Assembly (NCBI GenBank): GCA_964016885.1
Contig: CAXHJY010000419.1
Span: 2,046 to 66,045 of the forward strand
From: Eledone cirrhosa
Lineage: Eukaryota
Direction of reading: 5' to 3'
Length of the DNA: 64,000 nt
The notes beneath the pieces are model-generated. The model searched no databases. It was not told the origin of the DNA and worked only from the letters and a program-made list of their open reading frames with translations. A program made the translations under genes and the position numbers. Positions 56,225 through 60,402 of the stretch are shown piece after piece. Each line of letters opens with the position of its first letter. Position 1 is the first letter of the stretch.

Positions 56225-58092
56225 TCGCTATTTCAGAGCATTTATTCCAATTTCTAATTTCTGCCGGACCGGCAACCGCTCTTTCAAACCAGTTCCTGTA
56301 CACAGCTAAGTATTCTATAAGTCTCTAGCTGTGTCATTCTCGATAAAAGCACTGGATATGTAGTCCTGATGAATTCTAACAAGAATGAAACGCGTAGACT
56401 TACTTCCCTTGCTTTTATCGAGAATCTAATTGTAATACGTGACGTATTCTATTCTATAGCGATTAGGTCTTCAAAATGTTTATTGTAAACATACAGAATA
56501 TTTTCGAATATTCTATGTCTATATTCACATATATATCGCTATTTCAGAGCATTTATTCCAATTTCTAATTTCTGCCGGACCGGCAACCGCTCTTTCAAAC
56601 CAGTTCCTGTACACAGCTAAGTATTCTATAAGTCTCTAGCTGTGTCATTCTCGATAAAAGCACTGGATATGTAGTCCTGATGAATTCTAACAAGAATGAA
56701 ACGCGTAGACTTACTTCCCTTGCTTTTATCGAGAATCTAATTGTAATACGTGACGTATTCTATTCTATAGCGATTAGGTCTTCAAAATGTTTATTGTAAA
56801 CATACAGAATATTTTCGAATATTCTATGTCTATATTCACATATATATCGCTATTTCAGAGCATTTATTCCAATTTCTAATTTCTGCCGGACCGGCAACCG
56901 CTCTTTCAAACCAGTTCCTGTACACAGCTAAGTATTCTATAAGTCTCTAGCTGTGTCATTCTCGATAAAAGCACTGGATATGTAGTCCTGATGAATTCTA
57001 ACAAGAATGAAACGCGTAGACTTACTTCCCTTGCTTTTATCGAGAATCTAATTGTAATACGTGACGTATTCTATTCTATAGCGATTAGGTCTTCAAAATG
57101 TTTATTGTAAACATACAGAATATTTTCGAATATTCTATGTCTATATTCACATATATATCGCTATTTCAGAGCATTTATTCCAATTTCTAATTTCTGCCGG
57201 ACCGGCAACCGCTCTTTCAAACCAGTTCCTGTACACAGCTAAGTATTCTATAAGTCTCTAGCTGTGTCATTCTCGATAAAAGCACTGGATATGTAGTCCT
57301 GATGAATTCTAACAAGAATGAAACGCGTAGACTTACTTCCCTTGCTTTTATCGAGAATCTAATTGTAATACGTGACGTATTCTATTCTATAGCGATTAGG
57401 TCTTCAAAATGTTTATTGTAAACATACAGAATATTTTCGAATATTCTATGTCTATATTCACATATATATCGCTATTTCAGAGCATTTATTCCAATTTCTA
57501 ATTTCTGCCGGACCGGCAACCGCTCTTTCAAACCAGTTCCTGTACACAGCTAAGTATTCTATAAGTCTCTAGCTGTGTCATTCTCGATAAAAGCACTGGA
57601 TATGTAGTCCTGATGAATTCTAACAAGAATGAAACGCGTAGACTTACTTACTTACTTCCCTTGCTTTTATCGAGAATCTAATTGTAATACGTGACGTATT
57701 CTATTCTATAGCGATTAGGTCTTCAAAATGTTTATTGTAAACATACAGAATATTTTCGAATATTCTATGTCTATATTCACATATATATCGCTATTTCAGA
57801 GCATTTATTCCAATTTCTAATTCTGCCGGACCGGCAACCGCTCTTTCAAACCAGTCCTGTACACAGCTAAGTATTCTATAAGTCTCTAGCTGTGTCATTC
57901 TCGATAAAAGCACTGGATATGTAGTCCTGATGAATTCTAACAAGAATGAAACGCGTAGACTTACTTCCTTGCTTTTATCGAGAATCTAATTGTAATACGT
58001 GACGTATTCTATTCTATAGCGATTAGGTCTTCAAAATGTTTATTGTAAACATACAGAATATTTTCGAATATTCTATGTCTATATTCACATAT
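56221..58092 (+). repeat. Tandem array A: 6 x 311 bp units, each with a type I hammerhead ribozyme (retrozyme-like)
   Basis: tcgctatttc recurs at 56225, 56536, 56847, 57158, 57469 and 57788. Confidence 0.95.
56336..56425 (+). ncRNA. Type I hammerhead ribozyme, array A copy 1 (predicted cleavage after GUA at 56396)
   Basis: agtc CTGATGA attct-aaca-agaat GAA ACGCGT A gact, closed by the 16-bp inverted repeat attctcgataaaagca/tgcttttatcgagaat. Confidence 0.9.
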
Positions 58093-58696
58093 ATATATAT
58101 ATATATACACACACATATATATATATATATATATATATATACACACACATATATATATATATATATATATATATATACACACATATATATATATATATAT
58201 ATATATATACACACATATATATATATACACATATATACACACATATATATATATACACACATATACACACATATATATATATACACACATATATATATAT
58301 ACACACATATATATATATACACATATATATATATATACACATATATATATATATACACACATATATATATATACACACATATATATATATACACATATAT
58401 ATATATACACACATATATATATATACACACATATATATATATACACACATATATATATATACACACATATATATATATACACACATATATATATATATAT
58501 ATATATACACACATATATATATATATATATATATATACACACATATATATATATATATATATATACACACATATATATATATATATATATACACACATAT
58601 ATATATATATATATATACATATATATATATATATATATACATATATATATATATATATATATACATATATATATATACATATATATATATATATAT
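58093..58696. repeat. (TA)n(CA)n microsatellite spacer between arrays A and B
   Basis: Directly visible. Confidence 0.98.
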
Positions 58697-60402
58697 AAAT
58701 TGAAACAAAATGAAAACGAAATTTCATTTCTCACTCTTAGTATGGCACTTACTTAAATGTAAGTATGCATGTATACGTACATACATATATGTATACAGAC
58801 GTACAGTAGCATGCACATATATATATATATACATATATACATACATATGCATACAGGTACACATACATATATGCACGTATCAGTTTAGCGGCGCTAACGT
58901 CGCTTTGTTCGTTTGTAAACAAACTGAACAGCCTGAATTTATGCCATACGGTGTTAAGGCAACCACGTCACCTTTTTGTTCAACACTGACACAGGAACGA
59001 TGTACTAGTTTCAAGCTTGTTAGCTATCATCAGCACCGTTTACCCATCTGCCAGATAGTTGAACGGTCGAAAGTATATACTTTCCTTATGAAAATTAACG
59101 GCTGAGCAGCCTAATTTGCATATTGAGTGAGTTAAATCGGTCAGGCATACCGAAAACGATAAATTGAAACAAAATGAAAACGAAATTTCATTTCTCACTC
59201 TTAGTATGGCACTTACTTAAATGTAAGTATGCATGTATACGTACATACATATATGTATACAGACGTACAGTAGCATGCACATATATATATATATATACAT
59301 ATATACATACATATGCATACAGGTACACATACATATATGCACGTATCAGTTTAGCGGCGCTAACGTCGCTTTGTTCGTTTGTAAACAAACTGAACAGCCT
59401 GAATTTATGCCATACGGTGTTAAGGCAACCACGTCACCTTTTTGTTCAACACTGACACAGGAACGATGTACTAGTTTCAAGCTTGTTAGCTATCATCAGC
59501 ACCGTTTACCCATCTGCCAGATAGTTGAACGGTCGAAAGTATATACTTTCCTTATGAAAATTAACGGCTGAGCAGCCTAATTTGCATATTGAGTGAGTTA
59601 AATCGGTCAGGCATACCGAAAACGATAAATTGAAACAAAATGAAAACGAAATTTCATTTCTCACTCTTAGTATGGCACTTACTTAAATGTAAGTATGCAT
59701 GTATACGTACATACATATATGTATACAGACGTACAGTAGCATGCACATATATATATATATATATACATATATACATACATATGCATACAGGTACACATAC
59801 ATATATGCACGTATCAGTTTAGCGGCGCTAACGTCGCTTTGTTCGTTTGTAAACAAACTGAACAGCCTGAATTTATGCCATACGGTGTTAAGGCAACCAC
59901 GTCACCTTTTTGTTCAACACTGACACAGGAACGATGTACTAGTTTCAAGCTTGTTAGCTATCATCAGCACCGTTTACCCCATCTGCCAGATAGTTGAACG
60001 GTCGAAAGTATATACTTTCCTTATGAAAATTAACGGCTGAGCAGCCTAATTTGCATATTGAGTGAGTTAAATCGGTCAGGCATACCGAAAACGATAAATT
60101 GAAACAAAATGAAAACGAAATTTCATTTCTCACTCTTAGTATGGCACTTACTTAAATGTAAGTATGCATGTATACGTACATACATATATGTATACAGACG
60201 TACAGTAGCATGCACATATATATATATATATACATATATACATACATATGCATACAGGTACACATACATATATGCACGTATCAGTTTAGCGGCGCTAACG
60301 TCGCTTTGTTCGTTTGTAAACAAACTGAACAGCCTGAATTTATGCCATACGGTGTTAAGGCAACCACGTCACCTTTTTGTTCAACACTGACACAGGAACG
60401 AT
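58697..60402 (-). repeat. Tandem array B: about 3.7 x 464-469 bp units, each full unit with a minus-strand type I hammerhead ribozyme
   Basis: aaattgaaac recurs at 58697, 59161, 59627 and 60096; last unit truncated at 60402. Confidence 0.95.
58996..59040 (-). ncRNA. Type I hammerhead ribozyme, array B (further copies at about 59462-59506 and 59930-59974)
   Basis: Minus strand aacggtg CTGATGA t-agct-aaca-agct-t GAA ACTAGT A catcgtt; predicted cleavage between 59003 and 59002. Confidence 0.88.

Follow-up and report, generated by a model that had tools for sequence, protein, structure and literature searches.

Convergent arrays of two hammerhead repeat families in one (TA)n tract of Eledone cirrhosa, probably inserted by Penelope-like machinery

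The two repeat arrays that face each other in this window (the whole stretch of DNA analysed, 64,000 nucleotides from Eledone cirrhosa) represent two protein-less families of hammerhead tandem repeats, A and B, which were probably inserted into one TA tract by the reverse transcriptase (RT)-endonuclease of a Penelope-like element (PLE), most likely in two independent events. Both families are assigned to the animal non-LTR retrozymes; there is good genomic evidence that their copying is driven by PLEs, and the template is likely to be circular RNA. The PLE reading is based on the following observations: near-identical arrays are dispersed through the genome, their targets are (TA)n, the insertions have two arms pointing outwards with paired fixed ends and a variant common to both arms, and copies of one PLE family of this genome, PLE-4, run parallel to them. 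What was flagged first is ordinary: the hammerhead is of the standard animal type, and the two insertions fell into one hotspot. Of more value is the pattern across the genome, where the PLE tail signature is mapped on the retrozymes to exact coordinates and one arm per site is a strict rule.

The two arrays and their hammerhead motifs

The region from 54614 to 63757 of the window is one long (TA)n/(CA) microsatellite that houses both arrays. Its parts are as follows.

54614..56217, no strand: (TA)n/(CA) microsatellite to the left of array A, which served as insertion target
56218..58096, + strand: array A, a one-armed insertion with 6.0 units of 311 bp
56354..56407, + strand: first A hammerhead motif, type I, core from 56366; loop II at 56377-56382, palindrome at 56390-56395, predicted cut after 56396
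56366, 56677, 56988, 57299, 57610 and 57927, + strand: starts of the A hammerhead cores
56548..56567, + strand: family A end site 2 (unit nt 166-171 after the cut)
58087..58096, + strand: family A end site 1 (unit nt 131-140), the outer 3' end of the array
58097..58694, no strand: target microsatellite between the 3' ends of A and B, 598 bp
58695..60402, - strand: array B, a one-armed insertion with 3.7 units of 466 bp
58745..58765, - strand: family B end site 1 (unit nt 249-253), in a predicted small hairpin
58993..59045, - strand: B hammerhead motif, type I, core from 59033, predicted cut 3' of 59003
59459..59511, - strand: B hammerhead motif, type I, core from 59499
59927..59979, - strand: B hammerhead motif, type I, core from 59967
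60403..63757, no strand: (TA)n/(CA) microsatellite to the right of array B

The sequence-only reading had described two arrays with a hammerhead in each unit, about 600 bp apart and convergent. Both points are borne out, since A lies on the + strand, B lies on the - strand and the gap measures 598 bp, and both arrays extend past the interval 56360..59975 first assigned to them. Array A starts at unit nt 133, within a short TA tract of the unit, and its 3' end at site 1 runs into (TA)n; end site 2 is present in every unit and is unused as an end in this array. The A core at 57610 carries an 8-bp duplication in the 3' strand of helix I. Array B runs from unit nt 2 at its 5' end to unit nt 312, which is end site 2, at position 58695, and its end site 1 is likewise unused. 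The position of the B 5' end beside the cut was considered as a meaningful feature and was set aside as chance, because it is the sole such 5' end among the B arms scored.

The predicted catalytic core, with a GUA site (NUH), is intact in all six A cores and all three B cores of the window, and both families match the type I plan with a helix I of 6 bp, a helix II of 4 bp and a palindromic helix III. The palindromes (ACGCGU in A, ACUAGU in B), the GUA sites and the differing helix I pairs were found as they had been claimed. The description of helix II as capped by U-AACA-A was right as to AACA, but the stem is better read as 4 bp closed by a hexaloop, UAACAA. A second correction concerns the base of helix II, where B and the two other aligned A variants have U-U and where 18 of 23 aligned rows (cores of four families, A to D) are unpaired.

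In the alignment of these 23 cores, 90% of the cells pair, compared with 34-45% in slid controls. Twelve of the 16 pairs change on both sides, and the central palindrome pair does so in 12 of the 23 rows. The covariation is real, as B, C and D have homology (61-76%) across a large part of the unit. The earlier claim of compensatory variation round a fixed core is upheld by these counts, and the ribozyme fold is under selection. The circular monomers, with a GC content of 34.7% (A) and 36.5% (B), fold better than 60 shuffles, with z values of -4.7 for A and -11.0 for B, the latter inflated by the TA tract.

The canonical metazoan type I hammerhead has 6 bp in helix I, 4 bp in helix II and 1-2 bp in helix III, whose loop is palindromic, and such hammerheads are active as dimers and occur in tandem repeats (PMC4209133). 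A and B share its core, helix lengths, six-base loop and palindromic helix III, and the design common to the two families is the textbook one. Neither A nor B reaches the gathering score of any Rfam hammerhead family (clan CL00010). They are set apart from HH9 (RF02275) by sub-threshold scores of 17.8 and 18.5 bits, far under its gathering threshold of 52, mostly owing to their minimal helix III. In the hexaloop, A and B align with the HH9 consensus loop CAAAAA. MicroRNA matches from Rfam were rejected as TA-repeat artefacts.

Among the 23 cores, hexaloop positions 1, 3 and 6 are invariant, position 2 hardly varies, and variation is seen at position 4, where AACA has its C; the loop II consensus is a UAANRA hexaloop. 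A 3-bp distal helix and a UAW/U internal loop are retained in helix I of each of the four families. The conservation of this internal loop in all four families makes a tertiary contact between loop II and helix I plausible, with the UAW/U loop as the likely docking partner.

Families and loop variants across the genome

A pattern search of the 3.0-Gb genome found 59,318 cores with a helix III of the A/B type and 31 matches to a reversed-pattern control, so the motif occurs far beyond chance. With about 59,000 cores, these repeats form a notable and recently active part of the genome. The loop UAACAA was the commonest (31,610 of the 59,318 cores, 53%), UAAUAA was found in 19,760 (33%), and both loops occur within A, within B and within a third family, C. 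Cores with other palindromes numbered 1,145 genome-wide (control 56); among the 100 matches listed for them, family D, with the loop UAAUGA, was the largest group, and AACA stood in loop II in 2. Families C and B are 62% identical over the unit and have the same palindrome, ACUAGU, and all 13 older loci examined matched B at 61-76%.

These counts bear on the proposal, made from the sequence, of a distinct AACA hammerhead subfamily with palindromes selected against cross-pairing and a functional convergent pair of A and B. It agrees with the frequency of UAACAA, with the covarying helices, and with the A/B helix III duplex, which is predicted to be unstable (+0.4 kcal/mol vs -7.5 and -4.8). However, the third base of AACA is C or U within each of A, B and C, family D has UAAUGA, and the HH9 loop is a similar hexaloop, so AACA does not mark a special subfamily. 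The sharing of one palindrome by B and C shows that the palindromes are not family barcodes and speaks against a restriction of dimerisation to the own family, although the A/B duplex is predicted to be unstable. The convergent orientation is what the insertion geometry predicts, as described below. We regard this proposal as quite improbable.

Outside the ribozyme, A and B have no significant similarity, in line with what had been stated: the local alignment scored 28, where shuffled sequences had a mean of 25.6 (p=0.26), and the best BLAST match between them was the 29-nt core itself. Both units are non-coding, and no frame of at least 250 aa was found within the arrays of four insertions (L182, L184, L185 and L190). 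The families are dispersed over many contigs, with at least 178 matches to A and at least 95 to B, mostly 97-100% identical. The first 5.75 Mb of contig C1 holds 27 insertions (5 A, 15 B-type and 7 C), or about one per 210 kb.

The contig of the window, C446, has a high number and abounds in simple repeats, which might suggest an assembly artefact, or a plain satellite with a chance motif. This is refuted by the presence of units A and B on many large contigs, by the covarying helices, and by a sequencing run in which, at both end sites of A, loose ends lead into TA repeats, and we give it practically no weight.

Two-armed insertions and Penelope-like elements

Two multimeric arms that point outwards from a variable inner junction were seen in the majority of A loci and in roughly half of the B loci examined, and the outer ends of these two-armed insertions lie in (TA)n. 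Counted from the predicted cut, the end sites are nt 140 or 166-171 in A, nt ~253 or 312 in B, and nt 228-233 or 302 in C, and the tail is 26-31 nt long in A, ~59 in B and ~70 in C. The loci sampled were the best BLAST matches and the first ones on contig C1, which is not a random draw. Ends were scored in 69 clusters, of which 42 were divergent and 27 were called one-armed; the latter include the two arrays of the window and a few loci in which a short second arm was missed. Both ends lay at a fixed site in 31 divergent insertions (16 A, 14 B and 1 C), and in every one of these the two ends were at different sites; none used the same site twice. If the sites were chosen independently and equally, the probability of this would be 0.5 to the power 31. 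Excluded from the 31 were six A insertions cut by a gap or by the edge of the sampled stretch, and five B or C insertions with an end elsewhere. Arrays A and B of the window, being one-armed, are without the two-site signature at this locus.

An inverted 5'-truncated arm, a tail at one end and a microsatellite target make up the signature of PLE-type insertion, and all three are seen in A, B and C. Endonuclease-bearing PLE insertions have a tail and an inverted 5'-truncated copy (PMC8557442), and in vitro two internal RT start sites bound the tail (PMC11167929). The A and B insertions are like them (PMC8557442, PMC11167929) in the inverted arm, the tail at one end, the two internal start sites and the AT-rich or (TA)n target, and differ in having no ORF and in arms that are multimers of a small unit. 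The tail lengths given above for A, B and C compare with a usual PLE tail of 30-40 nt.

Several PLE families with RT and GIY-YIG domains are present in this genome. PLE-4 is a young family with many equal-scoring copies and a 784-aa open frame (RVT_1 + GIY-YIG). It targets (TA)n, its 3' repeat carries a variant hammerhead-like motif (U3-A8), and its insertions end at nt 126 or 167 after the cut of this motif. Among 16 PLE-4 loci examined, all 8 two-armed ones had one end per site, and with these added to A, B and C the rule of one arm per site holds in 39 of 39. The end motif of PLE-4 resembles that of A or of an old B at the right position, weakly (p 0.03-0.18). PLE-5, an older autonomous family with a UAACAA loop in some copies, was rejected as the present partner, as the scored copies include no full-length frame and many have stops. 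In the DNA downstream of 26 of 30 GIY-YIG loci, no PLE terminal repeat was found to share homology with A, B or C beyond the ribozyme, and the A and B matches there were opposite-strand neighbours or short TA-tract matches. Of 110 loci with A, B, C or D cores, only 3 had PLE protein pieces nearby, and in none of the 3 was a piece joined to a unit. We name no PLE partner, because no terminal-repeat homology was found in the downstream DNA compared and the likeness of the end motifs is weak. The families differ from an autonomous PLE in that A and B have no RT and GIY-YIG ORF, and such ORFs lie elsewhere in the genome.

Twin priming yields 5' inversions, and inverted arms would also be expected if the arrays had been moved by a LINE in this way. 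RTE-like elements are common in the genome, and LINE-like frames lie near several loci and in the window. Against transport by a LINE, the ends are internal, fixed and paired one-each, neither poly(A) nor a LINE 3' repeat is present, and the pattern is that of the PLE-4 copies. We consider a LINE very improbable as the agent and retain the PLE.

The insertion geometry also accounts for the meeting of A and B. A B-type neighbour within ~2 kb was found in 2 of 19 A loci (L046 and L047) and beside 1 of the 5 A insertions at the start of contig C1 (L182), while uniform placement at the density of C1 predicts such a neighbour for about 1% of A loci. The closeness is attributed to the common (TA)n target. 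Arms that point outwards make neighbouring insertions of one tract convergent, and all three of these other A/B pairs are convergent like the pair in the window. A meaning of the facing arrangement beyond this geometry is not supported.

The template and the relation to known retrozymes

The same variant was found in both arms of all 14 A loci and all 4 B loci that have whole monomers in both arms, and the variants differ from locus to locus. At six loci (L048, L051, L053, L058, L059 and L069), changes are fixed in all copies and absent from the other sampled loci. The fixation of variants in both arms fits a bottleneck of a single monomer. Arms have up to 16 copies, with fractional copy numbers.

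The copying may proceed as follows. An array would be transcribed, neighbouring hammerheads on the single transcript would pair through the helix III palindrome and release monomers, and the monomers would be ligated into circles. A PLE protein would then nick both strands of (TA)n, and reverse transcription would start at two internal sites with a match of 2-10 nt of AU to the primer. Each polymerase would travel round the template several times, and the two cDNAs would finally be joined at their far ends. More specifically, the insertions could be the footprint of twin-primed rolling-circle reverse transcription by a PLE dimer, with two fixed starts on one circle made by the ribozyme and with a weak end motif, common to unrelated families, that recruits PLE-4. 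We put this specific form forward tentatively, at slightly less than an even chance. If it is true, the footprint is direct genomic evidence of how retrozyme circles become DNA, and the same reading explains why the PLE tail stands at exactly one end.

PLE machinery could also have made the insertions without any circle, if the multimers stem from the uncut, linear transcript of a donor array or arose later by unequal crossing-over. The main PLE template in vitro was uncut RNA, and insertion still took place with ribozyme mutants (PMC11167929). Local amplification is what a recent preprint proposes (bioRxiv 10.64898/2026.07.22.740005), and the word 'tail' is absent from its main text. A linear multimeric RNA of a uniform donor array would likewise yield uniform arms, and later amplification is seen in one region (L056/L057) and in some long C arrays. 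The changes private to the six loci above argue against this route, as they are fixed in every copy of both inverted arms, and so do the long arms, the fractional copy numbers and the variable inner junctions; crossing-over in particular would not readily equalise inverted arms. A route without a circle is in our view a serious rival, though less likely than the circular template, which is preferred.

Animal non-LTR retrozymes are short low-GC tandem units of 150-450 bp, every unit with a single type I hammerhead (Cervera and de la Pena 2020, PMC7229834). The axolotl has 126,247 hammerhead motifs, and expression, cleavage and ligation to circles are reported for coral, mussel and axolotl retrozymes (PMC7229834). 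A and B are like these in their low GC (under 45-50%), self-paired circular fold, many dispersed protein-less copies and short palindromic helix III, and this genome too holds tens of thousands of motifs; the U-U at the base of helix II in B is found also in HHR_Amex2 (PMC7229834). The differences from the account in PMC7229834 are that unit B (466 bp) is slightly over the stated range, that two-armed insertions with fixed ends are not described in its main text, and that expression and cleavage are shown there and are proposed here from sequence. A wider range of units, 51-972 bp, is given by the preprint, in which 8 of 9 predicted Xenopus dimers did not cleave (bioRxiv 10.64898/2026.07.22.740005).

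PLEs have been named as the likely mobiliser of retrozymes, with the mechanism left open (PMC7229834; bioRxiv 10.64898/2026.07.22.740005). The preprint treats retrozymes as non-autonomous PLE derivatives, and the present families agree with it as to PLE machinery and co-occurrence with endonuclease-bearing PLEs. The evidence is of a different kind: co-occurrence and Xenopus terminal-repeat homology there (bioRxiv 10.64898/2026.07.22.740005), and the insertion signature, with homology not found, here. A literature search, mainly of open-access main texts, returned nothing on point about hammerheads in octopus or cephalopods, or about retrozymes in inverted or head-to-head arrangement. A and B belong to the known animal non-LTR retrozymes, and fixed-end two-armed retrozyme insertions were not found in the main texts searched. 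Given the tail signature, the 39/39 rule and a young PLE whose RT-endonuclease frame is open and whose target is also (TA)n, mobilisation and tail formation can be tested directly in the published in vitro system.

In three sequencing runs of other organisms, A assembled as a 340-base contig that wraps back at 311. We do not take this as evidence of an RNA circle, since the assembly of a tandem repeat gives the same result and low-depth pieces of B also occur in two of the three runs; the A and B sequences in these runs fit low-level carry-over. No RNA run was listed among those that contain the units, which carries no weight either way as to expression.

Two minor observations concern the end sites. 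The best A/B alignment, which is not significant (p=0.26), places end site 2 of A and end site 2 of B in register, and a comparison of A end site 2 with an old B variant gave a match at p=0.01, uncorrected.

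Penelope-like families with hammerhead-like motifs

PLE-4, a young Penelope-like element (PLE) family in the same genome, is represented by the loci L201-L216, of which two examples are as follows.

L201:2814-5165, + strand, PLE-4 (RT-endonuclease frame)
L207:5372-6736, - strand, PLE-4

The family has a 784-aa frame with RT and GIY-YIG domains, and a second frame of at most 455 aa, for which no Pfam match was obtained, overlaps it on the upstream side. A hammerhead-like motif lies in the 3' repeat of PLE-4; its core is of the U3-A8 type, and GCAA stands where GAAA is expected. 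U3-A8 hammerhead variants that have the palindrome ACCGGU were found in two PLE families besides PLE-4 (L142, L144, L146, L152, L155, L162 and L171), and a 938-aa frame is present at L171.

Later changes to the tandem-unit insertions

At L056-L057 (G000:C14:25206000-25226000), more than 50 cores of family A, the 311-bp hammerhead-bearing tandem units, were observed, all on the same strand. They lie in a higher-order array built of A fragments and TA tracts, which is a secondary amplification. At L181:1875-8273, an insertion of family C, a third family of such units, is split by a LINE-like element. This element has a frame of 1040 aa, and CAT repeats mark the junctions.

Unit A in public sequencing runs

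Unit A (window 56226-56560) was detected at 95-99% or more, in the form of one looped contig with low depth, in three public runs that carry the names of three other organisms. The simplest reading of this occurrence is carry-over.

Other repeats and fragments

Another hammerhead-like core that recurs, in which helix II is short and helix III is not palindromic, was observed at window 52830-52880 (-) and at L176, L180, L185 and L186. The window also contains the following features.

1-8552, satellite array, 27 bp x 317
36623-39778, satellite array, 77 bp x 41
about 44480-45200, + strand, partial LINE-like reverse transcriptase frame that includes a YADD motif
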